DNA from: Bacteriovoracia bacterium | GTDB lineage: Bacteria; Bdellovibrionota; Bacteriovoracia; Bacteriovoracales; Bacteriovoracaceae | DNA: 64,000 nt | NCBI GenBank assembly: GCA_046570105.1 | Contig: JBKHVI010000003.1 | Location: 1-64,000 of the forward strand | Direction: 5' to 3' | Part shown: in pieces, positions 34,725-52,012 of the stretch | How the letters are laid out: each line of letters starts with the position of its first letter | How positions within the stretch are numbered: the stretch's first letter is position 1 | The notes under the pieces: generated by a model | Database searches by the model: none | Seen by the model: only the letters and a program-made list of their open reading frames with translations | Told to the model about the DNA's origin: nothing | Position numbers and translations under genes: made by a program

Positions 34725-35312
34725 ATGCGTCTCTTTATCGCTGTGTTTTTATTTTGTGTGACCGCTGAAGCTGTTCACGCTCAACGCGTTGACACTATTA
34801 TCAATGGCCGTCGTTATACTTGTCATCCAGCTGATAACGGTCCTCTTCCTCCACCACCGCCACGCGATCCTAGCCTCTGCGCCAATACTGCTTACGCGGG
34901 TCCTTTCTCGCGCGATGAATCTCTTCGTTTATGTGAAGGTGCCTATGATGATTCACCTGCACGTTGTGCGATCAAAGCTTATGCAGGTCCCTTCAGCAAA
35001 GATGAATCTATTAACCTCTGCACACGTGCTTACTCAGTAGGTCCAGCCGACTGTGCGATCAAGGCCTACGCCGGCCCATTCAGCAAAGCTGAGAGCCTTC
35101 AGCTATGTGGTAGCCCTTACGCAGACGTAGCAACAGCAGATTGCGCTATACGTGCTTACCAAGGCCCCTACTCGCGCGAAGAAAGCATTCGTATGTGTTC
35201 TGGTCGCAGTTCGTTGAAGTCTGCACCAAGCTTGTTAGCCAAGAGTGAGCTAGAAAATCTACTCATCTTAGCGAATGAAAAAGCTGTGTTGGAAGGAAGC
35301 TATAAGAGATAA
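34725..35312 (+). CDS. Secreted Cys-repeat protein
   Basis: AGGAG RBS; signal peptide; four ~29-aa repeats CAxxAYxGP[FY]SxxESxxLC. Confidence 0.85.
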   Translation: MRLFIAVFLFCVTAEAVHAQRVDTIINGRRYTCHPADNGPLPPPPPRDPSLCANTAYAGPFSRDESLRLCEGAYDDSPARCAIKAYAGPFSKDESINLCTRAYSVGPADCAIKAYAGPFSKAESLQLCGSPYADVATADCAIRAYQGPYSREESIRMCSGRSSLKSAPSLLAKSELENLLILANEKAVLEGSYKR

Positions 35313-36273: not shown

Positions 36274-37275
36274 CTAAGGATATTTCTCAACTAGTTGAGC
36301 TGCTAGCTCCTCCGCATCGGAGCGAATCCCACGCAAGAAGCGAGAACGAAAGTCTTTGTTCCTGGGGGAACCTAGATAATAGACATTAGGGTGTGGAAGT
36401 GGGGCCATGTCTGAAAAAGAAAATCCAGTTGTAAAAATGAGCACATCACATTTTATAGGTGAACCATTTTTAAAAAAAACCTCATCACTGGATATTCTCT
36501 CAATTATTCCACGACAAACAATAGGCTTATGTTTGATCAATTTATTTACTGACTCATCCATCAGAACTGGAAAGTTCAAACGAGGCCACAATCTCGCGAC
36601 GAGTGCTTCAATGCCTATGCTAAACCAGACAGGCAATTTATGAATCCATGCTGGTGAGAAACGAATGGGACTGCGATGACTGATTATAAAACTGACTTTG
36701 CCTTTCGTTTTTAATTCAATCTCTTCAATAATTTGTCCCGCCGATAAACGGCTTCCAACTATGAGTACTTTTTTGTTGGTGAAATCAAACTTGTCTGTAG
36801 GGTTATCCACGAAATGAAAGACCGGGATGCTCGCCTGACTAATGATATCTTTTGAAAGTGAATAAGCAGGATTATTCCAGTACCCGGTAGCAAAGACTAC
36901 TGCCCGTGCCTTGATTGATTCGTTATCTGTTTGCAAAATTAGTTCGTTGCTTTTGGAATCGATCGTTAATACGGATTTATTATATTCGACAGAGAGATGA
37001 TGCTTGCGCGCGTACTCGGCAAAATAGCCATGTATTTCTTGCGCTGATAATTGCCTTTTGCTTGGAAAAAGTTCGCGATCTTCACTATCAAGATGATTCA
37101 TCGCCCAGGGTGTCAGAATTTTAAGAAATGAAGGCATCGCTTTAAAAGAACTCGCCGGCCCCTCTGCCTTCTCTAGCACTCGATGAGGAATATTTCTGCG
37201 TAAAAGTTCGCGCGAGAGCTTAAGCCCAGCTGGACCAGCTCCCACGATAACAATCTTGGCAACATCATGTGGCAC
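36274..37275 (-). CDS. FAD/NAD(P)-dependent oxidoreductase (CzcO/flavin monooxygenase-like)
   Basis: GAGPAG, FATG, degenerate second dinucleotide motif VGSRLSA, TGF, and RGIR.DA. Confidence 0.8.
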   Translation of the reverse strand: MPHDVAKIVIVGAGPAGLKLSRELLRRNIPHRVLEKAEGPASSFKAMPSFLKILTPWAMNHLDSEDRELFPSKRQLSAQEIHGYFAEYARKHHLSVEYNKSVLTIDSKSNELILQTDNESIKARAVVFATGYWNNPAYSLSKDIISQASIPVFHFVDNPTDKFDFTNKKVLIVGSRLSAGQIIEEIELKTKGKVSFIISHRSPIRFSPAWIHKLPVWFSIGIEALVARLWPRLNFPVLMDESVNKLIKHKPIVCRGIIERISSDEVFFKNGSPIKCDVLIFTTGFSFSDMAPLPHPNVYYLGSPRNKDFRSRFLRGIRSDAEELAAQLVEKYP

Positions 37276-37280
37276 TTTGA

Positions 37281-38780
37281 TTAAGCAAAAGTCGTAAGCT
37301 TAACTCGCTCAGGTTCATTCACACCTTCAAGATCCAAGCGCTTATCTTTGAAGCGATGGATATTGTTATAAGCACAGCCAGGCATCAATCGACCATCAGG
37401 TAGAGCATAGTGGGTACAACATTTGCGAATACGTGAGACCTCAAAGTCAAACTCGTCCATAAACGCATGAATGAAAATCGCTTTAACTTTAGTTTCAGAA
37501 AGCTTCCAAAGCTGCTCTTGTCCAAGAGTGCCAGCGCCCTGATATTCGTTCAAAATCGACTTCAATGATTGCAGCACCTGCTCTGTATCAACCGTGACAC
37601 TTTGTGCACTCCAGAGATTATAGATGGCATCTTGAATGAGCTGTTGGGCTTTATCATCGGCTTCTAAGATTGCTCGATTGGTAAGCATGTTGAGATAAAC
37701 GGCTACGTCACCAAAGTGAGTCAAAGGAACGAATTTACCGTTGTCCAACTTCAAAACGTAACAAGCGGTATAACAAGAAGGATGCGAGCATGGGATAGGG
37801 AGAAAATCTTCTTTTTTGAGCCAATCAGTTTGCTTCTCAAGTAACTGATGAATATCCACTTGTGTAAGACGTCCCATTGGATCTTGTGGGAATGAGGTTC
37901 CGCCGGCACCAGTATACGCTGCTGGCTGAATAGTCACCGAGGTAACAAAGTCATGCTTAAGCGCAAAGTCGATAACTTCACCTAATTCATGATCGTTGAA
38001 GCCGCGGGCAACTGTTGGAACGAAGATCGTGGGAATATTATATTTCTCACACATCTCGAGCGTTTTCATTTTTGTTTCAAGTAATGAGGCACCACGAAGT
38101 TTTTTGTAATTCTCGTTGTTCAAAGAATCGAACTGCAATGAAAGATAAAGACCCATATCCTTAAAGCGTTTGGCAAATTCTTCGTCCTGAGCAATTTTAA
38201 TACCGTGAGATGAAACCAAAACACGCTTAATATCTTTTTGCTTACAGGCGTATTCCGCTAATTCAAAAAACTGTGGATGAAGTGTCGGCTCTCCACCCGA
38301 AAGTAACATCAACTCAAGACTTCCTTCTTTACGCAGAAGTCCGTCAGTGATGTTTTTAAATTCCTGCAAAGACATATTATAATTGTTCTGATTCCAAACA
38401 ATACAGATGGGGCACTTAAGATCACAGGCATTACTAATTTCAACAATGGGAGAACATGTATGCTGTTCATGTTCTTCACAGAGCCCACAATCATCAGGGC
38501 AGCCATCTTTAAAATGGGTAGAGAATTCTTTCGGCTTAGTTCCAGGTTTGGTGTAAGTCAGACTTTTAACCCAATAATCAACATCAGATGAGAGAAGTGC
38601 TTCAAACTCACCATGGTGAAAACAGCGTTTCGTAAGAATAACTTTATTGTCGCGAAAAATAATTTTGGCCTGAATAGTTTTGCGACATTTGGGGCAGATT
38701 GACTGTGTCGCTGAAAAGAATGAGCCTTTACGGTCTTCTTTATCCTTAAACGTATTAGTTCCGCAGCATCCTACATCCAT
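37281..38780 (-). CDS. Radical SAM enzyme of the tetraether synthase (Tes/GDGT-MAS, MJ0619) family
   Basis: Rubredoxin-like SICPKC...K.C..HG; CPDDCGLCEEHEQHTC auxiliary cluster; CDLKCPIC; SGGEPT; HPSC; FMD.FDF...R.RKCC.HY..PDGR..P.CAYN. Confidence 0.85.
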   Translation of the reverse strand: MDVGCCGTNTFKDKEDRKGSFFSATQSICPKCRKTIQAKIIFRDNKVILTKRCFHHGEFEALLSSDVDYWVKSLTYTKPGTKPKEFSTHFKDGCPDDCGLCEEHEQHTCSPIVEISNACDLKCPICIVWNQNNYNMSLQEFKNITDGLLRKEGSLELMLLSGGEPTLHPQFFELAEYACKQKDIKRVLVSSHGIKIAQDEEFAKRFKDMGLYLSLQFDSLNNENYKKLRGASLLETKMKTLEMCEKYNIPTIFVPTVARGFNDHELGEVIDFALKHDFVTSVTIQPAAYTGAGGTSFPQDPMGRLTQVDIHQLLEKQTDWLKKEDFLPIPCSHPSCYTACYVLKLDNGKFVPLTHFGDVAVYLNMLTNRAILEADDKAQQLIQDAIYNLWSAQSVTVDTEQVLQSLKSILNEYQGAGTLGQEQLWKLSETKVKAIFIHAFMDEFDFEVSRIRKCCTHYALPDGRLMPGCAYNNIHRFKDKRLDLEGVNEPERVKLTTFA

Positions 38781-38880
38781 AGATTCTCCTGGTGAGGAAA
38801 CACCCTACCATAAGGCCAATTTTAGATACAAGTTCCGAATAACCGAGCTTTTTTTTTGCTTTTTTGTCAGAATAGCAACC

Positions 38881-41049
38881 ATGTGGTCACGACTAAACTT
38901 TTTACGCTCACCGCTATCGGTGCTAGCGGTCTTTATAGGCTTTCTGGGCCTTAGTTTTTCTCAACTAAAAAATCTTCGTACCGAGCTACAAATTTATCAC
39001 CTGGACGATACACGCTTTAAAACGGCGCAAGATTTTCAGCGTGTCCGCAAAAGTTTTGCTGACCCTGCTTCGTTTCAATTGCACTGGTCGAAGCAAAATG
39101 GGCCTTTCACCATGGTTGAAGTATGCCAGATAGAAAAGCTTGTAAGAAATCTCAAAAAACTTACTCCTATCAAGGGAACTTTCATTGCCAGCATCAGCTC
39201 TCCGCTTGATCTGCGCACCTTTGAACTGACTGGCAGTCGCCTGTGGTTTCCCCGACTCCTCAGTGTGCAGTGCCAAAATCCCACAACGGAACCCGTCGAC
39301 CTCACTCCGCTCTATAATTTTCCGCTCTATCTTCAGCCGCTCACAACTGCTGCCATTCTTTCTTACAACCTGAAGCTCGCAACTGAATCCGACAAGGCAG
39401 AAAATGCTCAGCCTGACATTATCGGTGAAGCGTATGTAAAAGCTTTGCAACTACAAAAGGAAATACCAGGTCTTGAGCTTCACATTGCAGGCCGCGGGGC
39501 GACTCCTTGGCATATGCAAAAAATGATGATGAGTGATGCTCCGATTAATCTATTGGTCTTTCTCTTCATTTTGATTTTCTTTCGTCTTTTTCACGGGTCT
39601 TGGACAAGTGGCTTTCTGCTGACCGGCTCCCTTGTGACGACTCTCACCATTTCACTCGGTGTGATGGCTTATCTTGATATTCCAATCGACGCTCTCACTA
39701 ATACCCTATTTATCCTGGTTATTATTTCTGGAGTTGAAGACTACATCTTTCTCGTGGAAGAGAAGCGAAAAAATCCTCAGACGCAAGTAAACCAACCCTT
39801 TATTAAATTGCGAGCTCCCAGCTTTTTCACCTCTCTTACGACTATCATAGGGTTCGGAGTATTAGTTTTTTCTAGAATAGAAATCATCCAACGCTTTGGA
39901 GCGATCGCCGCTTTTTCCGCTTTGATTGAATGGTTTATTTTACTCTTCGCACTTCCCGCACTGCTGACACTTTTCCCAGCACTTGCTAACAAGTGGCTGC
40001 GAATAGACAAAGCTTGGGCACCTCGCTGGCTAGATAGTCTGGCGACATTGCGCCCCTCCTTCATAGTAAGTGTCATTATGGTTGCCATTTCTTTGGCAGG
40101 ATTTTTAGCATTCTCACACTTGAAATATAATGATTCTCCGAGGGAAAATTTCCCAATTCATCATCCTGCTCATAAAGCCTATGCTTTTTTAACACAGCAG
40201 TTCGGCTCTGAAGGATCACTGGAGATCGTCTTCCCGGCGAAGCATGCAAAACCTAAAAACTTTGAAGAAAAAATTTCTTCCATCTCTGGTGTCGTCAAAA
40301 TCCATTCACTGCCTGCTCTGTTTCATGCTATTCCACAAGACCTACCCCAAGAAGTCACTGAAGATATTAAACGCCATATTATGCAGACTGATCTCGCCCA
40401 ACATTATCAAAATGATGAGTGGGAAAGATGGGTCGTGTATGTTCAATCGATAGATCAAGAATCTTTGAAGAAAATGATTATTCAGATTCAAGCGATTTGT
40501 CAGGATACCTGTTTCCCGAGTGGCGAACTCGTTGTCTACGCAGACTTCGCAGATGAAGTCGCGAGCACACTTTTTAAAGGACTTGATCTCTCACTTTTAT
40601 TAGTGGGACTCACAGTCATCTTCTTGTGTTGGTGGAGAAAGATCAAACCCCTCTGGCCGGTACTCTTTAGTCTATTTTGGTGCCCACTAATGCTGTTGTT
40701 GGTGCTAGTGGTATTTAATGTTCCCATCAATCTGATGACTTGTTTAATAGGAGCCATTTTTGTGGGGCTCTCGGGTGATAACTCTATTCAGTATTTATTT
40801 GCCAGCAAGAATCTTGAGGATGGAGCGCTTGAGCGCTCACGTGCCACTGTTGTATTAACCATACTCTCAATGTGCTTATGTGGCTTCTTATGGGGATTTA
40901 CCCTTCGGCCGCTGCACACCGTAGGAACATTGCTGGCCGTCGGATTTGCTTTTATTCTGATTGGTGATCTGTGGGTATTACGAGGTTTACTTCATAAAGC
41001 GAATCGTGGGGCCAACACGCGCACCAAAGATTCAATTGAAACAAACTGA
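38881..41049 (+). CDS. MMPL/RND family (HpnN-like) lipid exporter
   Basis: Two repeats of TM + periplasmic domain + 5TM; GVEDYI, TSLTT..GF..L..S...I..FG and GLSGDNSI motifs. Confidence 0.8.
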   Translation: MWSRLNFLRSPLSVLAVFIGFLGLSFSQLKNLRTELQIYHLDDTRFKTAQDFQRVRKSFADPASFQLHWSKQNGPFTMVEVCQIEKLVRNLKKLTPIKGTFIASISSPLDLRTFELTGSRLWFPRLLSVQCQNPTTEPVDLTPLYNFPLYLQPLTTAAILSYNLKLATESDKAENAQPDIIGEAYVKALQLQKEIPGLELHIAGRGATPWHMQKMMMSDAPINLLVFLFILIFFRLFHGSWTSGFLLTGSLVTTLTISLGVMAYLDIPIDALTNTLFILVIISGVEDYIFLVEEKRKNPQTQVNQPFIKLRAPSFFTSLTTIIGFGVLVFSRIEIIQRFGAIAAFSALIEWFILLFALPALLTLFPALANKWLRIDKAWAPRWLDSLATLRPSFIVSVIMVAISLAGFLAFSHLKYNDSPRENFPIHHPAHKAYAFLTQQFGSEGSLEIVFPAKHAKPKNFEEKISSISGVVKIHSLPALFHAIPQDLPQEVTEDIKRHIMQTDLAQHYQNDEWERWVVYVQSIDQESLKKMIIQIQAICQDTCFPSGELVVYADFADEVASTLFKGLDLSLLLVGLTVIFLCWWRKIKPLWPVLFSLFWCPLMLLLVLVVFNVPINLMTCLIGAIFVGLSGDNSIQYLFASKNLEDGALERSRATVVLTILSMCLCGFLWGFTLRPLHTVGTLLAVGFAFILIGDLWVLRGLLHKANRGANTRTKDSIETN

Positions 41050-41372
41050 GCCAAGTCTTTGGGCGCTAAGTTATCCGCTGGATTCAACCCTGGAAGTAAG
41101 GGTGCTAAGCGTTTTTTTGCTTCATCACTTAAGATATCATTTTGAACGGCTTCTTCACGACTGAGTCCAGTGCGCTTAAGGAAATCAAAATCATTTTTTT
41201 CTAATTGAATATTGAGGTCACCTTCAAGTTGGAAAATGATATCCATAAAATCCAACGAGTCAGCACCCAGATCAGTCATGATCTTGGTATCAAGAGTCAA
41301 GTCTGCTTCTGATCGCGCCATACTACGGGCGACACAGGCAATAACATTTTTTTCAAGTTCTGAGCGATTCAT
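40992..41372 (-). CDS. Acyl carrier protein, extended (126 aa)
   Basis: DLGADSLDFMDI phosphopantetheinylation motif; long insertion after helix II/III. Confidence 0.9.
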   Translation of the reverse strand: MNRSELEKNVIACVARSMARSEADLTLDTKIMTDLGADSLDFMDIIFQLEGDLNIQLEKNDFDFLKRTGLSREEAVQNDILSDEAKKRLAPLLPGLNPADNLAPKDLAQFVSIESLVRVLAPRFAL

Positions 41373-41384
41373 AGAATTTTCCTC

Positions 41385-42083
41385 TTACCATAAACTATAG
41401 CCACCATCGACTGGAAGTACTACTCCAGTTATCGCTGATGCATCATTAGATAACAAAAAACTGCAAGTTTTTGCAATCTCTTCAGCACGAATTAAGCGCC
41501 CCATCGGTACCATTTCAGCAGGATCAACTCCATTTTCTTCCTTAGATTGGCGCAACATTGCCGAATCAACGGGTCCTGGTAAAACGATATTGATTCGCAC
41601 ATTACGCTTGGCCATTTCGCTGGCAAGAGCTTTGGTTAATCCTTCTAGTCCTGCTTTAGTAGCAGAATACACCGCATGACCACGAGTCATACGATGAGCA
41701 GAAACACTTCCCATTAAGACAATACTGCCGGCACGTTTTTTAGAAAATAAAGGCAGAAGCAGTTGTAAAAACTTAGTGGGTGCAAGCATGTTGGTTTGAA
41801 ACATTTCATTCAAATGCTCTTCAGCTAATCCCATCAAAGGCCCACTGTGATGGATCCCCGTGCAATCAACATAACCGACCAAATCTTCTTGGCTCACTTT
41901 CATGATAAGATTTTTGCAAAGTTCAGGATTATTAACGTCCAATTCAAACCAATCAATGGGTACAGCTGGGTTTTTCTCGCGTCGAAAAGTTCCAATAACA
42001 TTAAAACCGCGACTCACTAAATCTTGCGCTACAGCGAGACCAATCGCGCCCGATGCACCAGTCACAAGGATAGTTTTTTTCAT
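41385..42083 (-). CDS. FabG-like SDR (ketoreductase)
   Basis: TGASGAIG, S...YSATK, PGPVDS and VDGG motifs. Confidence 0.9.
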   Translation of the reverse strand: MKKTILVTGASGAIGLAVAQDLVSRGFNVIGTFRREKNPAVPIDWFELDVNNPELCKNLIMKVSQEDLVGYVDCTGIHHSGPLMGLAEEHLNEMFQTNMLAPTKFLQLLLPLFSKKRAGSIVLMGSVSAHRMTRGHAVYSATKAGLEGLTKALASEMAKRNVRINIVLPGPVDSAMLRQSKEENGVDPAEMVPMGRLIRAEEIAKTCSFLLSNDASAITGVVLPVDGGYSLW

Positions 42084-43294
42084 TCTGCACTTCCTAGGAT
42101 TAAACAAGAGTTATGGCCACCAAAGGCAAATGAGTTCTTAAGTACAATTGAAAAATGCCCCTTGCGTGGCTGACCTAGTACGTGATCAAGCTGGCATGAC
42201 GGATCAATCTCCGTGGTGTTAATCGTCGGATGTAAACTCTGCTGCTTCATACATAGAAGAGCACCCACTGTTTCAAGTGCCCCACCCGCAGCAATTAAAT
42301 GGCCTGTCATAGATTTGGTAGCAAAAACAGGAACACTCATTGCTCGGACACCTAACAACGTTTGGATGGCCTTCGTTTCCATCACATCGTTTTTTGGTGT
42401 TGATGTTCCATGTGCATTCACAGCACTAATATCATTCGCCGTGATCCGTGCATCAGCTAATGCATGTTTCATCGCTCGCAGTGCGCCTTCTCCGTCTGGA
42501 TGAGGATCACTGGGACTATATGCATCCATACTGTGGCCATGGCCTAGAATGAATCCTTGAATGTCAGCACCTCGCTTTTTGGCATTCTCTTCACGCTCTA
42601 ACACCATGAAAGCTGCTCCCTCACCAAGCACAAAACCATCACGATTTTTATCAAAAGGCCTAGAAGCTTTTGTAGGTTCATCATTACGTGCACTCAGCGC
42701 ACCTAATAGACAAAATCCACCCAGTCCCATGGGATTCACCATAGAATCTGTCCCTCCGGCAACAACCACATCTACCTCGCCCGAACGTAAGAGCTCGAGG
42801 GCTGTTCCTATCGCATCAGTACTCGCCACACACGCAGAGAGATGAAGTCGCGGAGGTGAGTGCAAGGAGAATTCGTGAGAGATCAAGTGAACCACTCGTT
42901 CTGCAGGATAATTTAGAAAAGCGAATTTATCTTCATCTGTTACCGCCGGGTAACGGTTTTTTTGCCAATCAATTAAGTCCGGGACGTGAAAAAGTTCAAG
43001 ACCCAAACCTAAACTTAAAGCACATTTCTTAGGAGCATAATGTCCATTTAACTGCGCCATAGCCATCGCTTCTCGGGCAGCTAAAATGGCAAACGACATT
43101 TTCACATCACGCTGATCCAAGACGATGGCAGAATCATCGACTTCTCCGGCAATTTGGGTCTGGTACCCACTTGGATCAAAGCGAGTGATGCGTTTAATTC
43201 CCGACTCACCTTTTTGTAATGCCTGATAAAATGCTTCACAGCCAATACCATTTGGAGAAACAACTCCCATCCCTGTGACAGCGATGCGTTTCAT
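42080..43294 (-). CDS. Beta-ketoacyl-ACP synthase (FabF-like, active)
   Basis: SACVAS (Cys), NAHGTST (His), KSMTGH (His), SRPFD..RDGFV.GEG and NSFAFGG motifs. Confidence 0.93.
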   Translation of the reverse strand: MKRIAVTGMGVVSPNGIGCEAFYQALQKGESGIKRITRFDPSGYQTQIAGEVDDSAIVLDQRDVKMSFAILAAREAMAMAQLNGHYAPKKCALSLGLGLELFHVPDLIDWQKNRYPAVTDEDKFAFLNYPAERVVHLISHEFSLHSPPRLHLSACVASTDAIGTALELLRSGEVDVVVAGGTDSMVNPMGLGGFCLLGALSARNDEPTKASRPFDKNRDGFVLGEGAAFMVLEREENAKKRGADIQGFILGHGHSMDAYSPSDPHPDGEGALRAMKHALADARITANDISAVNAHGTSTPKNDVMETKAIQTLLGVRAMSVPVFATKSMTGHLIAAGGALETVGALLCMKQQSLHPTINTTEIDPSCQLDHVLGQPRKGHFSIVLKNSFAFGGHNSCLILGSAE

Positions 43295-44166
43295 AAAGTC
43301 GCTCCCATCGAAAAATGGTAGCGATAGTAATCATTTTTATAAGAAAAATGGATGACTTCTTTTTTCAGACGTTTCTGTTGAAGTGTATAAAGATCTTGCA
43401 CTGGCCCCAGATGTTGATCAATCTCAGTTTTAAAGCCGATCTCTTGAACTCCACCTGGTGGATGATATTGCATTTCAATTGGACTAACCAATCTGCAGTT
43501 CTGGTGGGTACCCTTACGTGCTAAAAGCCACATGCCTCCACAGTCAGGAGTTAAGACATTTTCAGGAAGACCCATCTTGCGGTTATAATTTTTTACCAAC
43601 GGATTTTGCTGATGAGTCGCCGCTCCCACGAGGGCATAGTCTACCCGGCCTCGACGCAAATCATGCATGGCTGCTGCCAACGCCTGGCCCCACTGATAGC
43701 GATCAGGATATGTCACGAGATAAGCTTCTTTGAGGCCGTAGTTATGAGATAGATGAAAGGCGGCCATATTGGGTAGACACTTAAATGTTGTCAGTGGATT
43801 AAGCGAAGGCATCGCTTTGGTCACAAAGTTCTCTTGTGAAAACTCTCCTTCAATTTGAGATTTCTCACCAAGAATACGAAGCTCTCGTTCTTCAAATGGC
43901 AGAACACCTACACACAAATAAAGTCCGGTACGCTGATTTCGTGTTTCTTGATCAAGTGGATACTGCTCAAGCACCTGGTGACAGGCTTCCATCGCAAGCA
44001 TATCCATCTTTGACATGAATTTAAGATTTTTGGGTTGCACTAAACAGCGACGTACATCAAGACTCACTTCTTGATTCGCACCACCTTGCAAGATGTCGGG
44101 CCCCACAAAAGATGAGGCTAGGAGAACTATCTCAGAATTGGACACGGCTGAAGCTCCCGGCTCCAA
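43291..44166 (-). CDS. Truncated KS-like protein lacking the catalytic Cys (chain-length-factor-like)
   Basis: LKFMSK, NPL..FKCLPNMAAFHLS..YGL and AL..A...L..G.VDYALVGA N-terminal KS motifs, with no ACxS; start may be GTG at 44145. Confidence 0.75.
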   Translation of the reverse strand: MEPGASAVSNSEIVLLASSFVGPDILQGGANQEVSLDVRRCLVQPKNLKFMSKMDMLAMEACHQVLEQYPLDQETRNQRTGLYLCVGVLPFEERELRILGEKSQIEGEFSQENFVTKAMPSLNPLTTFKCLPNMAAFHLSHNYGLKEAYLVTYPDRYQWGQALAAAMHDLRRGRVDYALVGAATHQQNPLVKNYNRKMGLPENVLTPDCGGMWLLARKGTHQNCRLVSPIEMQYHPPGGVQEIGFKTEIDQHLGPVQDLYTLQQKRLKKEVIHFSYKNDYYRYHFSMGATL

Positions 44167-44606
44167 ATTTTATAAATCTGCAGACGCTGTGCTGTTAGCG
44201 CATTGGACTCCACTTCTAATAGAGTCATCATCAATCTCCCCTGAACTCGAATCTCATCCCCACAACGTGCTTCCACACTCAGCATAGCTGTCTCATCAAT
44301 GAGAGAATCAATTTTGGCAAAATAATCAAGTGCATCGCCTGGCCGACTCGGAATCTTGAATTTCATTTTATCAACAGTAGAAAGCACTGCCCTTCTGACG
44401 GGGCGAGAGGCATCTTGATTATGAGTTGTTTCCAATAAAAATCCTGCCACTTGTGCCAGCCCCTCTATAATCAGCGCACCGGGGAAAATTGGAATATCGG
44501 GAAAATGATCGTGGAGGACTTCGTCAGTCAAAGTCACGCACTTGCGAGCTTTAATTGTTTCACCTAATTTAAGCTCTTTAATGACATCAAAAAGAAAATA
44601 TCTCAT
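44127..44606 (-). CDS. 3-hydroxyacyl-ACP dehydratase (FabZ-like)
   Basis: HFP..PIFPGALIIE.LAQ and KF....PGD motifs. Confidence 0.92.
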   Translation of the reverse strand: MRYFLFDVIKELKLGETIKARKCVTLTDEVLHDHFPDIPIFPGALIIEGLAQVAGFLLETTHNQDASRPVRRAVLSTVDKMKFKIPSRPGDALDYFAKIDSLIDETAMLSVEARCGDEIRVQGRLMMTLLEVESNALTAQRLQIYKIWSRELQPCPILR

Positions 44607-45298
44607 AGGGCCCCATCGGCGACGACTGACTCGCCAGTTATATACGTATTATAGGTAAGCATTCCATGCACTAGCTCTGCCACTTCATTTGGTTTCATAT
44701 ATCTGCCGAGCGAACAGTGTTTTAAATATTTATCTTTCAAACCTCGTGGAAGTTGCTGCGATACTTTCCCTTCAACAATTCCCATACAAAGTTGGTTCAC
44801 CAGAATTCCATGCTCTCCCAACTCGTGGGCGGCAGATTCCACAAGACCTTTCAGTGAGGCTTGGCATTGCGAATAAAAAACCGGAGCGGTTTGAGTCTTC
44901 ACTCCATCGAGAGTATTAAGAAAAAGTATTTGTCCTTTTTCATTCAAAAGCCGCTTTGCTTCTTTAATCAGTAGAAAGGGAGCTTCCACTCTTATTTTGT
45001 AAAGCTCATGCATAAACTCTGGGGTTGTTTCTTCCGCGGTTTTAAAAGCAGGATAATCACTTTTGAGAAGTTGCTTAAAATCAATTTGAGCGGCGTAAAC
45101 GATGGCATCATGGCCCGCTTTCAAATCCCAAGGTTTCAAAAGATTAAGTTCAAATCCTTTGGCACCGAGTGCCTCGAGATTTCTTGCTTCTTCGCGATTG
45201 CGACAAAATGAAAAGGCGACTTCGTGGTGCTCTAAGCGCAAATGCTTAACCAATTCACGGCCAATTTCTCCTGTGCCCCCAATAACAAGTATTTTCAC
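44603..45298 (-). CDS. SDR with a degenerate catalytic motif
   Basis: GGTGEIG Rossmann motif; YSQCQ in place of YxxxK; ITG...ADG. Confidence 0.8.
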   Translation of the reverse strand: MKILVIGGTGEIGRELVKHLRLEHHEVAFSFCRNREEARNLEALGAKGFELNLLKPWDLKAGHDAIVYAAQIDFKQLLKSDYPAFKTAEETTPEFMHELYKIRVEAPFLLIKEAKRLLNEKGQILFLNTLDGVKTQTAPVFYSQCQASLKGLVESAAHELGEHGILVNQLCMGIVEGKVSQQLPRGLKDKYLKHCSLGRYMKPNEVAELVHGMLTYNTYITGESVVADGAL

Positions 45299-46023
45299 TA
45301 AAAACCTCCATCCATCAAAACGGTGGAGCCAGTCATATAGCTATTCTTTTCTGAGATCATAAAAGCAGCGAATTTTGCGACTTCATCAAATTCGCCCACT
45401 CTCCTAAGTGCCACATGGTTTTCATAATCTTTCACCATATTGTCAGGAAGATTACGTGCAACCCCTTCTTTGAGCAGTCCAGGTGCCAAGTTCAATACTC
45501 TCACTCCATAGCGACCCACTTCTTTTGCAAGTGTAGCTGTAAAGCCATGCAGAGCCGCTTTGCTAGTTGCATAGTGCACGGGAGCGGCCAGCATTTTCTC
45601 TCCCGCTAGAGAGCCGATATTGAGCACGACACCTTTTTTACGACGAATCATGGGTGGTAAAAATACTTGCGTCACATGAAAAAGACTCTTGGTGTTGCCA
45701 TAAACGACTCGATCCCAGTCTTGTTCATCCTGTAGTGGAAAAGGCATCGCCTGAGAAACGCCGGCATTGTTCACTAAAATATCAATAGTCACATTCTTCT
45801 CATCCAAGTTTTTTTTGAGAGTTTCCATATCCGAACGCTTGAGCGCGTCGGCACGAAAATACTCACCACAACCCATCTGGCGTTGTGTTTCCTGCGCTCC
45901 AGCTTCATCGCTTAGATACGTGAAGAAGACGTTTGCTCCCTGCCTTTTAAATTCCAGACAGAAAGCGCGCCCTAAACCTTTTGAGCCACCTGTCACCAAT
46001 ATGTTTTTTCCTTGCAACAACAT
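45298..46023 (-). CDS. FabG-like 3-oxoacyl-ACP reductase
   Basis: TGGSKGLG, NNAG, S...YATSK, APG and MDGG motifs. Confidence 0.92.
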   Translation of the reverse strand: MLLQGKNILVTGGSKGLGRAFCLEFKRQGANVFFTYLSDEAGAQETQRQMGCGEYFRADALKRSDMETLKKNLDEKNVTIDILVNNAGVSQAMPFPLQDEQDWDRVVYGNTKSLFHVTQVFLPPMIRRKKGVVLNIGSLAGEKMLAAPVHYATSKAALHGFTATLAKEVGRYGVRVLNLAPGLLKEGVARNLPDNMVKDYENHVALRRVGEFDEVAKFAAFMISEKNSYMTGSTVLMDGGF

Positions 46024-46785
46024 TTAAGCTCCCACCACATGCAGGCCACCATCAACAAACTGCACAGTACCGGTGACATGCTTTGAGAGCTCACTTGCGA
46101 GATAAACAGCTGTAAGTCCTACATCGTTGCCATTCGTATTTTGGCGCAGTGGAGCTTTCTCTTTGGCCATCAAGTAATGGGCATCAAATCCCTCTACACC
46201 CATCGCCGACATCGTTCTGACGGGTCCAGCAGAAATGGCATTTACTCTTACTCCTTGTGGTCCAAGTTCATGTGCCAAGTAACGCACACTACTCTCTAGT
46301 GCGGCTTTCGCCATTCCCATCATGCCATAGCCTGGTATCACGCGCTCACTGCCGATATTAGTCAGCGCCAGAAGACTTGCTCCCGGATTTAGGTAAGGCT
46401 GTACAAGTTGAGCTAAACGGACAAACGAAAAGGCACTGACTTCTAATGTTTCTTGCAACCCCTTGAGACTGGTGCCCATCAGTCCGCTGGCCAACTCTGA
46501 CGGCGGAGCAAATGCCATGGAATGCACGACAATATCTATTTTTCCCCACGCCTGAAGCGAAGAAGTTAAATTCTTCCAATGATTCTCATCGCGCACATCT
46601 AAAAGTTGGCAAAAACTTGCTGACAATTTTTCTGCCAACGGAACAGCTCTCTTCTCACTACTAGCAATTCCATACGTGAGTGCAATCGATGCGCCTTGGG
46701 CATGGAGACTTTCTGCGATCGACCAGGCCAGGCTTCGATCATTGGCCAATCCAAGAATCAAGGCCTTTTTATTTTGCACTAGCAT
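46024..46785 (-). CDS. fabI: Enoyl-ACP reductase FabI
   Basis: GLANDRSLAW, HSMAFAP, SAFSF, YGMMGMAKAALES and ISAGPVRT motifs. Confidence 0.92.
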   Translation of the reverse strand: MLVQNKKALILGLANDRSLAWSIAESLHAQGASIALTYGIASSEKRAVPLAEKLSASFCQLLDVRDENHWKNLTSSLQAWGKIDIVVHSMAFAPPSELASGLMGTSLKGLQETLEVSAFSFVRLAQLVQPYLNPGASLLALTNIGSERVIPGYGMMGMAKAALESSVRYLAHELGPQGVRVNAISAGPVRTMSAMGVEGFDAHYLMAKEKAPLRQNTNGNDVGLTAVYLASELSKHVTGTVQFVDGGLHVVGA

Positions 46786-46814
46786 TTTCTTTCCTTGTTG
46801 CGGATGATCGATCC

Positions 46815-47771
46815 ATGTCCAAAAACCTTCTTTCACGCTGGTTCGAAGTTTATCAAGAACTCGGTCAGCCCATTGGAATTCATACTTTTCGCGTTGATAA
46901 GCGCGACGGCCAAATTGAGCACCAAGAACACTCACATATCGAGTGGGATGGTTTCAGTCTGGCGGTCTATAAGCTTCGCCAATTAGGATGGGTCATTCAA
47001 CCCCCACGTCGGCTAAAATCATTTTCCCTTTCTTTTTTAGCTAAAGTGAAAGCCTTTTTTCATTATTTAATTTGGGCGCGAGTGAGAGATGTAAGATGGA
47101 AAAAATTTGATGCACAGCGTACTGGTCATAACCCTCCTCAAATTCATGTATTTGAACAAGAAATGACAGAAAAATGGCTTAGAGATTTAGCACAACAAAA
47201 TCTATCACCTAATGCTTGGCTGCTTCACCGTCTGAACAAGCTCACTGCACCGTTAATTCACAGTTCAGAGGGTATTTGGTGGATTCCGGTCGACTATCGT
47301 CCCTACTCAGACTTTTCTTGGGATGAACCTAATGTCGTGTCTCATATAGCTGTATCAATCAACACGTCGCAAAATCCAAGATTGATAGAAACTTTTATTC
47401 AGAAGAACTTAATAGATGGTGCACCTTGGGCGGCCTGGAAATGGATGCAATTGATTGCTAAATTTGGGAAAACAACAATGAAAGGCATCCTGCAATCACA
47501 GCTCAAAAAAAATCGCTGGTGCGGCACAATGACTTATTTGGGACGCTGGCCGAATCGTTTTGCGACTGCTCCAGTGGACACACCCTATCGGCTAGTAGGT
47601 GCACCGCCACCGATGCTGGGACACCCTATCTCGATGGGCGTGAGTCTTATGTGCGATCAACTCTGTGTTGCCTTTACCAGTCATTGTTCCCTTTTTTCTG
47701 AAACTGAATCGCAAATGTTCTTTCATGATTTTTTAGATGAAGTATCAAATGGAATGAAAGGACAAGTATGA
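46815..47771 (+). CDS. CoA/ACP-dependent acyltransferase (condensation/CAT-like HxxxDG fold)
   Basis: SHIEWDG = HxxxDG; IPVDYR resembling PV[DN]LR; N.VS and T.LG.W. Confidence 0.65.
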   Translation: MSKNLLSRWFEVYQELGQPIGIHTFRVDKRDGQIEHQEHSHIEWDGFSLAVYKLRQLGWVIQPPRRLKSFSLSFLAKVKAFFHYLIWARVRDVRWKKFDAQRTGHNPPQIHVFEQEMTEKWLRDLAQQNLSPNAWLLHRLNKLTAPLIHSSEGIWWIPVDYRPYSDFSWDEPNVVSHIAVSINTSQNPRLIETFIQKNLIDGAPWAAWKWMQLIAKFGKTTMKGILQSQLKKNRWCGTMTYLGRWPNRFATAPVDTPYRLVGAPPPMLGHPISMGVSLMCDQLCVAFTSHCSLFSETESQMFFHDFLDEVSNGMKGQV

Positions 47772-48814
47772 GTAAATTTAAATTCATTCTCTCATTTATA
47801 TTTTTTATCGCACTGACTGCTTGTGGAATTTTTGCAGCAGCGATGCAAACAGAGCAGAAAAATTTTAGCTTTGACTTGATTGCCAGTCTTCCTTGGACTG
47901 TTGTCTCTGCATTGATAATTTCTTCCATCTGCATTTATCTAGTTGATATCCTCCGCTTCTTCATTTTCTCTCATATGATTGGAGTACGACTCCAGTTTCT
48001 TCATGCGCTAGAAGCAGCCATCGTAAATTTATTTTTTGGATGGGTAACACCAGGGGCTGCCATGGGTGCACCGGCGGCTGTTTATACTTTAGGCAAGAGA
48101 GGTATCCCGTGGGATGCCTCATTAATTATCTGTTTTGGAAAATCACTAACAGGTTTTGGAACAATTTTATTATTAGCATTTGTTATGATTGCCATGGGTC
48201 TGGGCCCACAAATTGATAATATTTTTATTTATGGGATCTTGTGGAGCGCATCTTTTATTGCCTTCTTTTTTATCGCTCTGCCCATTGTAGGTAGCTTTTA
48301 TTCGGCGTCGACTCACCGATCGTTAGATCGTATTGAACAGAAACTTTTTTCCAAAAATCCTAAGATCAAGCTTCGTGCGAACAAGATATTTAAAGTACTA
48401 AAAGATATGATTGAACGTCTGCGGTTGTTACATAACCAAAGAAAGTTTCTATTTCTCATCGCGCTTGTTTCACAATTACTTTATTTCGCAGCTTTCATTG
48501 CACCCGCCGTTATCGTTTGTCATTATTTCGGAGGAGAGATTAGCAAGGCCATACCCCACTCACTCATTTACACTGCCCTTGCCTATTCTGCGCCGACCCC
48601 TGGTGGAGCTGGTATCTCTGAAGCATCCTCAGTCATTTTCTTTAATACAATTGTGCCAGCGATGAGCGCGGCTTATGTCGGAGTCATCTTCCGAGGATTT
48701 ACTTTCTATTTCCAAATTCTTATGGGGATACTTTATTTCCTTTTTTTTGGTGGGGGGTCTGCCATTCTTAATAGTAAAAATGCATTAGCTGGGAAATCAC
48801 ATGAGCCCAGTTGA
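47768..48814 (+). CDS. Lysylphosphatidylglycerol-synthase TM (UPF0104, flippase-like) protein
   Basis: R......G, VTPGAAMG and PTPGGAGISEA...R.FTFY motifs; multi-TM. Confidence 0.88.
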   Translation: MSKFKFILSFIFFIALTACGIFAAAMQTEQKNFSFDLIASLPWTVVSALIISSICIYLVDILRFFIFSHMIGVRLQFLHALEAAIVNLFFGWVTPGAAMGAPAAVYTLGKRGIPWDASLIICFGKSLTGFGTILLLAFVMIAMGLGPQIDNIFIYGILWSASFIAFFFIALPIVGSFYSASTHRSLDRIEQKLFSKNPKIKLRANKIFKVLKDMIERLRLLHNQRKFLFLIALVSQLLYFAAFIAPAVIVCHYFGGEISKAIPHSLIYTALAYSAPTPGGAGISEASSVIFFNTIVPAMSAAYVGVIFRGFTFYFQILMGILYFLFFGGGSAILNSKNALAGKSHEPS

Positions 48815-49461
48815 ATGTAAACTATTTAGATTTTTTTGACCTTAAACTGATTAAGGAACTGAGAAACAAAATCAAAAGAAAAGAATCACATTTCAAACCT
48901 ATCGAAGCCAAATTTGGCTTCAACCTTCCACTAAGTTTATTAAACGGTATTGAAATTCGAAAAAACTTTCCAGAAATCGTTTCGTTTGCTGAAACGAATA
49001 TCAAGGAATTAGTTGAACGCGAAGTAGGGACGCCAATCAACCTGATGAGAGATAATCTGCGCTCAATTCGTATCCAGCGCTATACTTCTCCCAAAGAGGG
49101 TTTCCTCTGGCATATTGATGGAGCCGACTACACTGTCTTTATCACCTTAAGTAACACTCTCAAAGGTGGAACAGAGTACATCTCTTTTAAACGCAGTTTG
49201 CTGCTAAAACCCTTGGTGTATTTCTATCCTTTTCTCGTGCTATTTAATCGATGCTCCTGGGCCATTCGTCCCTTCGCTCCACGAAGGATGCTGGGCGAAC
49301 CAGGTGATCTTATTCTGTTACAAGGAGGAAAATCGGCCCATAGAACTTATTGTGAGAGTGAGAGCGGCGAGAGACAGATTCTGGCCATAAGCTTTGATCG
49401 AGTGACAAAACCTAAAAACCCTATCTGGGATTTTATTGCGCAAAAGCTTGTGCACCAGTAG
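48811..49461 (+). CDS. 2OG-Fe(II) oxygenase family protein
   Basis: WHID (HxD), GGT, GD.ILL.G....HR (distal His) and R..L.ISF motifs; TTG start coupled to the upstream stop. Confidence 0.75.
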   Translation: MNVNYLDFFDLKLIKELRNKIKRKESHFKPIEAKFGFNLPLSLLNGIEIRKNFPEIVSFAETNIKELVEREVGTPINLMRDNLRSIRIQRYTSPKEGFLWHIDGADYTVFITLSNTLKGGTEYISFKRSLLLKPLVYFYPFLVLFNRCSWAIRPFAPRRMLGEPGDLILLQGGKSAHRTYCESESGERQILAISFDRVTKPKNPIWDFIAQKLVHQ

Positions 49462-51795: not shown

Positions 51796-51860
51796 GGCTA
51801 AATTCTTCACCGCACAAGCTTAGTTCATGAATGTGGATGGAGACAATTAAAGGTCAGCGC

Positions 51861-51929: not shown

Positions 51930-52012
51930 TGGTGCCCGGTGAGGGACTCGAACCCCCACGATCACTCACCAGATCCTAAGTCTGGCGTGTCTACCAATTC
52001 CACCAACCGGGC
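51930..52012 (-). tRNA. tRNA-Leu (TAG)
   Basis: GCCCGGT/ACCGGGC acceptor stem + ACCA; D-loop GGAATTGGTAGAC; anticodon arm CCAGA-CTTAGGA-TCTGG; GTTCGAGT T-loop; long variable arm. Confidence 0.96.

Follow-up and report, generated by a model that had tools for sequence, protein, structure and literature searches.

A radical SAM enzyme of the Tes/GDGT-MAS superfamily from a deep bacterial branch, encoded in an accessory island with FAS/PKS-like genes

Bacterial relatives of archaeal Tes (GDGT-MAS) have been known since 2022 and are often invoked for the brGDGT lipids that serve as climate proxies; in the excerpted literature a function is shown for none of them, and papers of 2025-2026 still call the bacterial homologues unconfirmed. 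The window analysed here, the whole stretch of 64,000 nucleotides from a Bacteriovoracia genome, carries a gene of this kind at 37281..38780 on the minus strand, surrounded by FAS/PKS-like genes. Does this gene encode a Tes that happens to reside in a bacterium, or a different member of the superfamily, and on which chains would its product act?

A full-length superfamily member that is not a Tes orthologue

A single open reading frame is listed for the window at exactly 37281..38780 (minus strand); it begins with ATG and encodes 499 aa. Every motif named in the original prediction is present in its translation: (i) the extra N-terminal GCCG, at residues 4-7; (ii) CPKC...CFHHG, which contains C29, C32, C53 and H56 of a rubredoxin-like site; (iii) CPDDCGLCEEHEQHTC, which contains C94, C98, C101, H104, H107 and C109, the first four of which mark, by motif, the N-terminal cluster; (iv) CDLKCPIC followed by IVW, with C119, C123 and C126 in the CX3CX2C spacing of the radical SAM cluster; and (v) the C-terminal HPSC (C336), FMD (440-442), CCTHY (C454, C455 and Y458) and PGC (C469). 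The residue behind the SAM motif had been singled out as non-aromatic: I127 indeed stands where MJ0619 has Phe, but both proteins have Ile between the second and the third Cys (CPIC). In MJ0619, Phe106 (numbering of the paper) touches the adenine via its backbone nitrogen (PMC9433317, excerpt). Pfam detects a Zn_ribbon_HMPTM domain (PF23545; E 2.3e-17, 62.7 bits, cut-off 27) and a Radical_SAM domain (PF04055; E 1.3e-23, 84.5 bits, cut-off 29.5), and this succession of a zinc-ribbon/rubredoxin domain and a radical SAM core, both above the Pfam gathering scores, is the pattern of the superfamily that holds Tes and TrsS, named IPR034474 in the excerpted text of PMC9433317.

The motifs are no chance matches, and an alignment with GDGT-MAS (7tol_A; E 4.7e-70, residues 23-478) runs from one end of the protein to the other. 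A structural model had been proposed as a check on the assignment. The AF2 model (pLDDT 80.6) matches 7TOL in Foldseek with a TM of 0.76/0.77 over 496 columns, the next match reaching only 0.36; Foldseek and Pfam together reveal the whole four-domain arrangement of GDGT-MAS (rubredoxin, N-terminal auxiliary, radical SAM core and C-terminal auxiliary domain), and the helical C-terminal domain of the 7TOL fold is also retained. With regard to the hydrophobic lipid tunnels and the amphipathic-helix pocket of GDGT-MAS, the C-terminal helices at 376-391 and 399-415 appear amphipathic (a value as high is reached by 1.9% and 1.6% of 1000 shuffles, respectively), in a region that the model places with a pLDDT of ~52. 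The predicted complex of the Tes-like enzyme with the carrier protein encoded nearby received a score of 0.00 in two runs without controls, and nothing is drawn from this score.

With the Tes/GDGT-MAS equivalog model NF045702, whose cut-off is 450 bits, the Tes-like protein obtains 303.2 bits, spread over two stretches; with the TrsS model NF045646 (cut-off 490) it obtains 295.2 bits. In the family tree, calculated with a quick search, a single-matrix model and midpoint rooting, the protein is found in a separate deep branch on the side opposite Tes and TrsS; the TrsS representatives form their own clade beside Tes (SH-aLRT 99). A grouping of Tes with the eight-row clade of the query, a group named after the tree was seen, is rejected by the AU test (p 0.00013). 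The original description as a bacterial Tes homologue is thus correct with respect to the superfamily but fails with respect to orthology: the protein is a full-length member of the Tes/GDGT-MAS superfamily and not a Tes orthologue, and its branch is deep, uncharacterised and bacterial. Among the 99 superfamily representatives scanned, 74 stay below both the Tes and the TrsS cut-off, which calls for caution when every BLAST-level Tes match in a metagenome is counted as tetraether potential. A scan of genome contigs with the Tes-like protein yielded only six close relatives. Representatives that match at E up to 1e-30 number 490, and homologues are also known from cultured Sorangium strains (P0104 and P0120). 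Close homologues also occur in MAGs of Pyrinomonadaceae, which had prompted a link to iso-diabolic acid; this link was dropped because Pyrinomonas methylaliphatogenes is entered without a Tes homologue in table S21 of PMC13159169.

Metal-site ligands and their variants

Conservation of the ligands was read from an alignment of 120 sequences, comprising the query and 119 homologues that are at least 46% identical. All Cys and His positions listed above are invariant in 120/120, except for the N-terminal CC, which is found in 38-40, and the cofactor ligands persist throughout the eight superfamily subgroups that were compared. C29, C32, C53 and H56 are arranged as C-x2-C-x20-C-x2-H, the motif of the rubredoxin-type site of GDGT-MAS, and C94, C98, C101 and H104 align with C73, C77, C80 and the associated His of the [4Fe-4S]N cluster of MJ0619 (both PMC9433317, excerpts). 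C336, C454 and C469, which are kept in all eight subgroups, are the probable ligands of the C-terminal cluster, as judged by alignment. The invariance of these residues, the alignment to 7TOL and the comparison of subgroups bear out the assertion that the ligands of all four metal sites of GDGT-MAS have been retained. In GDGT-MAS these sites, a rubredoxin site and three clusters, correspond to 13 Fe per monomer.

The alignment with MJ0619, which had likewise been proposed as a check, agrees for the Cys and His of the clusters and for the active-site Tyr, but not for the labile ligand Met439 of GDGT-MAS, which aligns with His438 of the Tes-like protein (alignment to 7tol_A). Position 438 is His in 120/120 members of the clade and Met in 12 of 14 Tes and 13 of 13 TrsS representatives; Met439 is fully conserved in 1000 archaeal homologues. 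Y458, which corresponds to Tyr459 of Tes, is invariant in the 120-sequence alignment and is present in all 20 nearest rows and in 13 of 14 Tes representatives. Beyond the four metal sites, H107, C109, C331 and C455 are invariant in the Tes-like clade; the three Cys are absent from Tes, and MJ0619 has Thr, Ile and Ser at the positions of H107, C109 and C331 in the same pairwise alignment. The replacement of Met439 by His438 and the three additional Cys imply that the cluster chemistry may differ from that of Tes, and both provide naturally occurring versions of the cluster on which the substrate radical is proposed to reside. H107, C109, C331 and C455 may form a fifth metal site that has no counterpart in archaeal Tes.

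In common with archaeal Tes/GDGT-MAS (MJ0619; PDB 7TOL/7TOM), the protein has the four-domain fold, the Cys/His sets of four metal sites and the active-site Tyr, whereas it is set apart by an identity of only ~30-35%, its separate deep branch, His438 and the extra H107, C109 and C331. The genes differ as well: the Tes-like gene comes from a bacterium, is accessory and has FAS/PKS-like genes as its partners, not those of isoprenoid ether lipids. TrsS, a member of the same superfamily that is not known to have an established function, shares the C109 position in 13 of 13 representatives, and C331 and C455 in part; unlike the Tes-like protein, it has Met at position 438 and no Tyr at the active-site position.

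The island and its recurrent cassette

The Tes-like gene sits in a ~16-kb accessory island, probably horizontally acquired, beside a tRNA-Leu gene. Synteny with the congeners stops at ~35.5 kb and restarts at ~51.9 kb, beside the tRNA-Leu (anticodon TAG; 51930..52012, minus strand) that forms the right edge and directs its 3' end towards the island; the Tes-like gene is present in 4 of 401 genomes of the phylum and in none of three congeners. No att-type direct repeat of the tRNA was found at the far edge, and no integrase-type family among the island frames scanned with Pfam.

The island includes a type II chain-building set on the minus strand. The Tes-like gene is followed, 5 nt downstream on the same strand, by a gene for a class-B flavoprotein (Pyr_redox_3, FMO-like; 36274..37275), and an MMPL/RND (HAE3-like) transporter gene diverges from it on the plus strand (38680..41049); the transporter frame overlaps the start of the Tes-like gene, so its true start is probably located further downstream. 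The minus-strand genes beyond encode a 126-aa acyl carrier protein (40992..41372) with the phosphopantetheine serine S39 in a DSL motif and a conserved C-terminal extension of ~60 aa, a FabG-like ketoreductase (41385..42107), a FabF-like ketosynthase (KS; 42080..43294) that has the Cys/His/His motifs and reaches 393 of the 494 bits set as the fabF cut-off, a short degenerate ketosynthase-like protein (43291..44166) with none of the three catalytic motifs, resembling a chain-length-factor (CLF) partner, a FabZ/FabA-like dehydratase (44127..44606), a divergent SDR (44603..45298), a FabG-like SDR (45298..46023) and a FabI-like enoyl reductase (46024..46935; 270 bits, cut-off 337). The housekeeping acpP-fabF genes are located elsewhere in the genome; the carrier protein and KS of the island are therefore extra copies.

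Three genes on the plus strand follow: a 318-aa PapA5/condensation-fold acyltransferase-like protein (46815..47771, counted from an internal Met of the frame 46680-47771; motif SHIEWDG), a flippase-like membrane protein (LPG_synthase_TM/TIGR00374; 47768..48814) and a 2OG-Fe(II) oxygenase-like protein with an H-x-D motif (WHIDG; 48811..49461). For the 318-aa, 216-aa and 158-aa proteins, Pfam gave no match at E up to 5; the 318-aa and 216-aa proteins are placed by Atlas look-up only, the former matching PapA/condensation clusters at a TM of ~0.8. Back on the minus strand, a radical SAM enzyme with a B12-binding domain (49433..50857) is outside the assigned families, its best NCBIfam matches (HpnJ 107, BchE 98 and rSAM_ladder_B12 93.5 bits) all being far below their cut-offs, and the last 4 nt of a histidine kinase gene (50854..51810) are shared with the start of the B12 radical SAM gene.

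Other Bdellovibrionota and soil metagenomes contain the same cassette, such that the linkage spans phyla. In four loci (L001, L002, L005 and L006), genes for the carrier protein, ketoreductase, KS, CLF-like protein, dehydratase and two SDRs adjoin the Tes-like gene, in differing order and on differing strands; the CLF-like protein is conserved in these four and in L088 and L093. A soil clade at ~50% identity has the order SDR, Tes-like, B12 radical SAM, 251-aa protein, KS, ketoreductase, carrier protein, dehydratase, condensation-like protein and flavoprotein, and in such soil-type cassettes a homologue of the FabG-like SDR (45298..46023) lies directly upstream of the Tes-like gene. Of the 26 long loci, whose flanks reach 8 kb or more, 23 have a KS homologue, and of the 60 loci whose flanks reach 3 kb or more, 58 have some KS, SDR or B12 homologue. 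In L001, L002, L003, L006 and many soil loci the Tes-like gene is immediately followed by the B12 radical SAM gene, which is found in only 11 of the 26 long loci. Homologues of the two are in several cases located on contigs of equal length (463384, 219762, 113848, 5215025, 166136 and 17809), which we take to be the same contigs. Homologues of the acyltransferase-like gene adjoin the B12 radical SAM gene in L001, L002 and L006, and the two proteins are naturally fused in P0339. Flavoprotein homologues (24-27% identity) occur in 15 of the 26 long metagenome loci, with Pyr_redox_3 at the end of the cassette in L069 and L044 (Pfam); homologues of the enoyl reductase (41-43% identical) adjoin the Tes-like gene in L005, L015 and L017, and those of the 2OG oxygenase-like protein are present in several soil loci (33-40% identical) and in five of the 26 long loci. 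The MMPL transporter, found in 2 of 26 loci, is no conserved member of the cassette, and no homologue of the flippase-like protein was detected in the related loci examined, including the 26 long ones. Linkage with the cassette genes shows a shared pathway, not the reaction. In the literature searched, which covered few subscription journals, no link between Tes/GDGT-MAS homologues and FAS/PKS clusters was found.

A dedicated carrier protein, a FabZ-like dehydratase, an active-type KS with an inactive KS partner and a flavoprotein within one locus constitute a ladderane-type architecture: these components, together with a B12 radical SAM enzyme, are described for the anammox 'Cluster I' (Kuenenia KustE3603-3608) and related FASII-plus-radical-SAM clusters (Desulfotalea, Geobacter) in excerpted accounts, in which a Tes-like enzyme does not appear. 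The individual proteins differ, however: the B12 radical SAM enzyme of the island reaches 93.5 bits where TIGR04072 has a cut-off of 360, and the flavoprotein is FMO-like rather than phytoene-desaturase-like. The island KS is nearer to ordinary FabF (1j3n, 295 bits) than to 9s5h (236 bits), which we take to be the anammox FabF pair. A special kinship with the anammox ladderane proteins was rejected, the KS and dehydratase being generic FabF/FabZ-like proteins and the CLF-like protein (43291..44166) having no PDB match; the resemblance is architectural only. Another parallel is the mycobacterial PDIM pathway, in which a carrier-bound acyl chain is off-loaded by the condensation-fold acyltransferase PapA5 and exported by an MMPL pump, MmpL. 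The island likewise has a PapA/condensation-fold protein and adjoining MMPL gene, but the former is a match at the level of the fold without a Pfam match, the latter is not conserved with the cassette, and the chain builder of the island is of type II, not type I.

Candidate reactions and products

With its distinct ligand pattern and a compact mobile cassette that has its own chain-building genes, this large bacterial branch is more than a bacterial version of Tes. In our estimate the chances are balanced that the Tes-like enzyme, a multi-cluster radical SAM protein of this branch, performs one tailoring step of a lipid-building island. Its somewhat probable substrate is a chain of fatty-acyl origin that the neighbouring genes produce, whereas C-C coupling, assigned by analogy, is a tentative proposal for its chemistry. 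The suggestion that acyl and not isoprenoid chains are the substrates is favoured by the gene context: a carrier protein of its own and FAS/PKS-like genes accompany the Tes-like gene across phyla, and no PcrB/GGGPS family match was found in the 88%-complete genome. These components could cooperate in the following manner: The carrier protein, the KS/CLF pair, the ketoreductase, the dehydratase and the enoyl reductase would build an acyl chain, and the B12 radical SAM enzyme and the Tes-like enzyme would then act on its unactivated carbons. By analogy with GDGT-MAS, the latter might use two SAM-derived 5'-deoxyadenosyl radicals, the first substrate radical being parked on the C-terminal [4Fe-4S] cluster with His438 as the exchangeable ligand; a C(sp3)-C(sp3) bond may then be formed that joins two chains tail to tail or closes a ring. 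The PapA5-like acyltransferase could pass the chain to an acceptor, and the flippase-like protein and the MMPL pump may, in this genome, carry the product into the envelope. The coupling of two fatty-acyl tails by a radical SAM enzyme has been shown for Mss of Thermotoga/Thermoanaerobacter (PMC13159169), which is thus alike in the type of reaction proposed; the likeness is one of description only, and Mss is only remotely related to Tes according to its authors. Several observations weigh against the scheme: the cluster variants named above, the occurrence of the B12 radical SAM gene in only 11 of 26 long loci, the lack of conservation of the MMPL and flippase-like genes, and the presence in the island of enzyme types that depend on O2, the 2OG oxygenase and the FMO-like flavoprotein, beside O2-sensitive radical SAM enzymes.

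The same scaffold could also serve the lipid pathway through another radical reaction, such as sulfur insertion or formation of a C-S bond that stops at the cluster-bound intermediate, desaturation, a hydroxylation-type rearrangement, C-methylation or formation of a small ring on the carrier-bound chain. Such a reaction would suit a branch separate from Tes and TrsS in a superfamily in which 74 of 99 representatives pass neither cut-off, and it would suit the invariant His at the position of the labile ligand and the Cys trio with H107 absent from Tes; the mechanism of GDGT-MAS runs via a substrate-sulfur adduct (PMC9433317, excerpt), which a differently ligated cluster could release or divert. 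We nevertheless regard it as doubtful: Tyr458 and all three Cys of the C-terminal cluster are kept as in Tes, the fold is kept over the whole chain including the helical C-terminal domain, and the cassette already has a B12 radical SAM enzyme for chemistry of the methylation or ring type.

If, instead, the enzyme were a functional equivalent of Tes, it would convert ordinary membrane glycerolipids (diester, diether or isoprenoid) into brGDGTs, diabolic acids or similar lipids that span the membrane, and its FAS-like neighbours would be only loosely connected. The four metal sites and Tyr458 accord with this, published hypotheses tie bacterial Tes homologues to brGDGTs (PMC8941075 and PMC10087280, excerpts), and the pockets of GDGT-MAS accept ester-linked bacterial phosphatidic acid, that of E. 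coli being bound and head groups being read non-specifically (PMC9433317, excerpts). A score below the Tes cut-off and a position outside the Tes clade speak against it, however, as do the tight recurrent linkage to a dedicated carrier protein and KS and the lack of a GGGPS match in the genome; a gene absent from all three congeners and matched in 4 of 401 genomes of the phylum is unlike a core membrane function, and in table S21 of PMC13159169 no Tes homologue is entered for the iso-diabolic-acid producer P. methylaliphatogenes or for 11 of 14 acidobacterial producers. Such equivalence is therefore quite improbable. The label 7,8-dihydro-6-hydroxymethylpterin dimethyltransferase, which the original prediction held to be common in this family, is indeed carried by several homologues in JGI records, and the Pfam name HMPTM stems from that annotation. 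As a function it is hardly credible: Lloyd et al. could not corroborate the activity for MJ0619, the narrow hydrophobic tunnel is unsuited to a pterin (PMC9433317, excerpt), and the neighbourhood is lipid/polyketide-like, not one of pterin biosynthesis.

The tailoring of chains built on the island would, in its most far-reaching form, yield an undescribed class of bacterial lipids: carrier-built chains would be methylated or cyclised, welded tail to tail or macrocyclised by a His-ligated variant of the Tes cluster, esterified and exported, the enzyme having a fifth metal site of H107, C109, C331 and C455. We consider this full scheme unlikely. The cassette is small and can be moved into a host, and its products are readable by lipidomics, so that the product of a bacterial Tes homologue becomes directly testable.

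Architecture and family placement of the Tes-like protein

The Tes-like gene, present in a single copy in the genome, is one open reading frame at 37281-38780 on the minus strand of the window, which starts with ATG, encodes 499 amino acids and has exactly the extent originally predicted. Every motif of that prediction was found in its translation: GCCG at about residues 4-7 (about 38766-38777), CPKC...CFHHG (C29, C32, C53, H56), CPDDCGLCEEHEQHTC (C94, C98, C101, H104, H107, C109), CDLKCPIC followed by IVW (C119, C123, C126), HPSC (C336), FMD (440-442), CCTHY (C454, C455, Y458) and PGC (C469). Pfam assigns an HMPTM zinc-ribbon domain to residues 22-65 (E 2.3e-17) and a Radical_SAM domain to residues 113-273 (E 1.3e-23).

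Two of the checks that accompanied the original prediction, an alignment with MJ0619 and an AlphaFold model, point to the same relative. Among PDB sequences the best match is the M. jannaschii GDGT-MAS (7tol_A), which aligns in two segments spanning residues 23-478 with E 4.7e-70, and the remaining matches cover radical SAM cores only, with E above 1e-5. An AlphaFold2 model (mean pLDDT 80.6, pTM 0.83), computed from a 36-sequence alignment, superimposes on 7TOL with TM 0.76/0.77 over 496 columns at 30% identity (Foldseek), whereas the second-best entry, SkfB, reaches TM 0.36 only; the four-domain architecture of GDGT-MAS is therefore shared in full.

The family-level scores and the tree place the protein elsewhere than in Tes proper. 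It scores 303 bits against the NCBIfam model of Tes (cut-off 450) and 295 bits against that of TrsS (cut-off 490). When 1.84 billion cluster representatives were searched exhaustively with HMMER, 6646 relatives had E values of 1e-3 or lower and 490 had values of 1e-30 or lower. Ninety-nine of the 150 representatives listed were scanned with NCBIfam, 51 short, fragmentary or fused ones being omitted: 13 lie above the Tes cut-off, 12 above the TrsS cut-off and 74 below both, two of the latter within 3 bits of a cut-off; all those scoring more than 232 bits against the query fall below both. A 96-row tree (the query, nine clade members and 86 scanned representatives, 12 partially aligned ones having been dropped) was calculated by an IQ-TREE quick search with LG+G4, SH-aLRT support and midpoint rooting. 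Tes-labelled and TrsS-labelled rows each form a single clade (support 99 for both) within the same 35-row side (support 96). The query belongs to the opposite side, which has 61 rows (support 96), and within it to successively smaller groups of 43 (100), 36 (98) and 20 (94) rows; a grouping of its eight-row clade with the 14 Tes rows was rejected by the AU test (p 0.00013; the group was chosen after the tree had been seen). Thus, at the level of sequence, the designation "Tes homologue" holds for the superfamily and fails for orthology: the protein is not a Tes orthologue.

Metal-site residues

Lloyd et al. (PMC9433317), whose residue numbers are the PDB chain numbers minus 20, describe for GDGT-MAS a rubredoxin site (C9-x2-C12-x20-C33-x2-H36), an [Fe4S4]N cluster bound by C73, C77, C80 and a conserved His, a CX3CX2C radical SAM cluster, an [Fe4S4]C cluster with Met439 as labile ligand, and Tyr459 at a distance of 4.2 A to the substrate's terminal carbon. 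In the alignment with 7tol_A, these correspond to C29/C32/C53/H56, C94/C98/C101/H104, C119/C123/C126, His438 in place of the labile Met, and Y458. Both proteins have the same CPIC core. The aromatic residue following the radical SAM motif is indeed missing, as had been noticed originally: I127 occupies the position of MJ0619 Phe106, which contacts adenine via its backbone nitrogen (PMC9433317). The GDGT-MAS variants M439A, Y459F and Y459L stay active (PMC9433317); therefore, neither residue by itself decides the chemistry.

The ligands of the rubredoxin site, the N-terminal cluster and the radical SAM cluster are invariant among 120 aligned sequences (the query and 119 homologues of at least 440 residues, 46-93% identical), as are H107, C109, C331, H333, C336, H438, M441, D442, C454, C455, Y458 and C469. 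The N-terminal GCCG, which the original prediction had singled out as an extra feature, is present in the query, but the CC pair occurs in just 38-40 of the 120, all of one Bdellovibrionota subclade, and the segment has a pLDDT below 50 in the model.

When eight subgroups of the superfamily were compared by alignment column, the rubredoxin site, the N-terminal cluster, the radical SAM motif and C336/C454/C469 proved to be kept in all of them, which bears out the predicted retention of the four metal-site motifs. At position 438, the Tes and TrsS representatives have Met (12 of 14 and 13 of 13, respectively), and the query clade (8/8), its nearest neighbours (12/12) and two more groups (14/16 and 7/7) have His. 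C109, C331, C455 and H107 are kept in the majority of non-Tes groups and to some extent in TrsS, whereas Tes representatives carry aliphatic residues there; in MJ0619, Thr, Ile and Ser stand in for H107, C109 and C331, and of the C454/C455 pair only the second Cys is kept. Tyr458 is common only to Tes (13/14) and the 20 nearest rows of the query (20/20). The additional Cys3-His set may constitute a fifth metal site, supply further ligands to an existing cluster or form a disulfide. Given the altered ligands and the separate place in the tree, a different chemistry on this scaffold is a real possibility.

An accessory island with a recurring gene cassette

Pfam and NCBIfam scans of the surrounding genes revealed an FMO-like flavoprotein (36274-37275) downstream of the Tes-like gene on the same strand, and a divergent MMPL/RND transporter. 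A tightly packed minus-strand run comprises a carrier protein (40992-41372), a FabG-like KR, a FabF-like KS, a short KS-like protein, a FabZ-like DH, two SDRs and a FabI-like reductase. A plus-strand trio encodes a 318-residue protein of the PapA5/condensation fold (46815-47771; Atlas structure match with TM ~0.8; motif SHIEWDG), a flippase-like membrane protein and a 2OG-Fe(II) oxygenase-like protein with H-x-D. A B12-domain radical SAM enzyme (49433-50857) and a histidine kinase (50854-51810) follow on the minus strand, the 3' end of the kinase gene running into the radical SAM gene at 50854-50857; this 4-nt overlap suggests translational coupling. A weak kinase homologue (25-26%) also adjoins the cassette in the related loci L001 and L002. 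The Cys/His/His motifs, which we take to be the catalytic motifs of KS enzymes, are all present in the FabF-like protein, and its short partner has none. Housekeeping acpP-fabF genes scoring above cut-offs reside on another contig (G000:C16:24934-26448), so that those of the island are additional copies. A third ACP-KS pair, which scores below threshold (G000:C2:31183-32647), suggests one more locus for a specialised lipid or polyketide. All 19 aligned cassette carrier proteins, including that of the window, have a conserved C-terminal extension of ~60 residues past the ACP fold; S39, D41, D44, F47, L65, L81, L89, L93 and L107 are invariant.

The island is accessory. Tes-like matches at E up to 1e-30 occur in four of 401 sampled genomes of the phylum, this one included, and in none of three from the same genus. 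DNA synteny with the congener G306 extends to about 35543 and resumes from about 51860, the intervening 16.3 kb being replaced by about 4.1 kb. At the right edge lies a tRNA-Leu gene (51930-52012, minus strand) with its 3' end toward the island; a search for a repeat of the tRNA end at the opposite edge found none, and the island ORFs scanned with Pfam yielded no integrase-type family. Another genome of the phylum encodes a 42%-identical homologue in a 592-residue open frame (G248:C452:1138-2532), which probably belongs to a different branch of the superfamily.

The linkage itself recurs in rearranged form. In four Bdellovibrionota MAG loci (Tes-like proteins 63-77% identical), genes for a carrier protein, KR, KS, CLF-like protein, DH and SDR adjoin the Tes-like gene in varying orders and strands. 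The B12 radical SAM gene directly follows the Tes-like gene in three of the four and on the short contig L003, and a PapA5-like gene comes next after it in L001, L002 and L006. A profile-guided scan of metagenome contigs yielded 429 stretches encoding relatives of 441 candidates, of which the best 80 were kept. Among these, 26 loci have at least 8 kb of flank on one side, and 23 of them contain a KS homologue, 15 a flavoprotein, 14 a DH and 11 a B12 radical SAM; any KS, SDR or B12 radical SAM homologue is found in 58 of the 60 with at least 3 kb of total flank (all except L085 and L090). Two soil-type loci of about 50% identity, L069 and L044, share by Pfam annotation the order KS-like / SDR / Tes-like / B12 radical SAM / 243-251-residue protein without Pfam match / KS / KR / carrier protein / FabA-like DH / 463-487-residue protein / Pyr_redox_3 flavoprotein, the 463-487-residue protein having a weak Condensation-domain match in L069 and none in L044. 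Reciprocal BLAST gave 50% and 47% for the two radical SAM enzymes and 23-38% for the much less conserved chain-building parts. The distribution of the B12 radical SAM is that of the Tes-like gene: its homologues, whose scores fall steeply below about 44% identity, are on contigs equal in length to those of several Tes-like matches and are taken to lie on the same ones. A natural fusion of 701 residues (P0339) joins a B12 radical SAM part (55% identical to 49433-50857) to a PapA5-like part (28% identical to 46815-47771, E 1e-18) and ties these cassette genes functionally.

A possible acyl-coupling pathway

The fold, the cofactor ligands and their differences, the conserved and rearranged linkage, the extra-copy FAS-like genes and the accessory island are observations, from which we infer the following pathway: an acyl chain would be assembled by the island on the carrier protein that it encodes; both radical SAM enzymes would tailor unactivated carbons of this chain; the condensation-fold acyltransferase would pass it on; and, in this genome, the flippase-like protein and the MMPL pump would bring the product to the envelope. 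The mechanism of GDGT-MAS may serve, by analogy, as default for the Tes-like step. In that enzyme, two SAM are spent per bond, a sulfur atom in the C-terminal cluster holds the first radical, and attack by the second yields a C(sp3)-C(sp3) bond (PMC9433317; PMC13459092); in the island, this could join acyl chains tail to tail or close them into rings. GDGT-MAS bound E. coli phosphatidic acid, its head-group reading being non-specific (PMC9433317), and this 88%-complete genome has no GGGPS/PcrB match; an acyl rather than an isoprenoid substrate fits both. The original interpretation is upheld in part: the metal-site ligands are kept, but the enzyme is not a Tes orthologue and His438 replaces the Met.

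Zeng et al. 2022 (PMC8941075), who counted 456 Tes homologues in bacteria, proposed that they take part in brGDGT synthesis, and Lloyd et al. (PMC9433317) mention such homologues as being of unknown role. Sahonero-Canavesi et al. 2022 (PMC13159169) describe a functional bacterial coupling enzyme, Mss, just remotely related to Tes, and their table S21 places Tes homologues in three of 14 acidobacterial iso-diabolic-acid producers. The bacterial homologues are still treated as unconfirmed in a 2025 study of the Black Sea (PMC11868695) and in a review of 2026 (PMC13459092). For anammox bacteria and some Deltaproteobacteria, clusters that combine FASII genes with radical SAM enzymes and flavoproteins are described (PMC2649909; bioRxiv 10.64898/2026.05.19.726425); a search mostly outside subscription journals found no published link of a Tes/GDGT-MAS homologue to a FAS/PKS cassette. 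The present locus is a well-delimited, mobile and conserved cassette built around a relative of Tes that is not its orthologue and in which His replaces Met and three extra Cys occur; the cassette is compact enough for a direct test of its product.

Two further genes lie outside the island. In the conserved chromosome, 27530-28510 (minus strand) encodes an OlsA/PlsC-like lyso-lipid acyltransferase, which scores 127 bits against the lyso-ornithine lipid acyltransferase model (cut-off 300). Just beyond the island border, 34725-35312 (plus strand) encodes a secreted-looking protein of 195 residues with three tandem-like repeats of 87 nt (29 residues) of the form CAIKAYAGPFSK.ES..LC.
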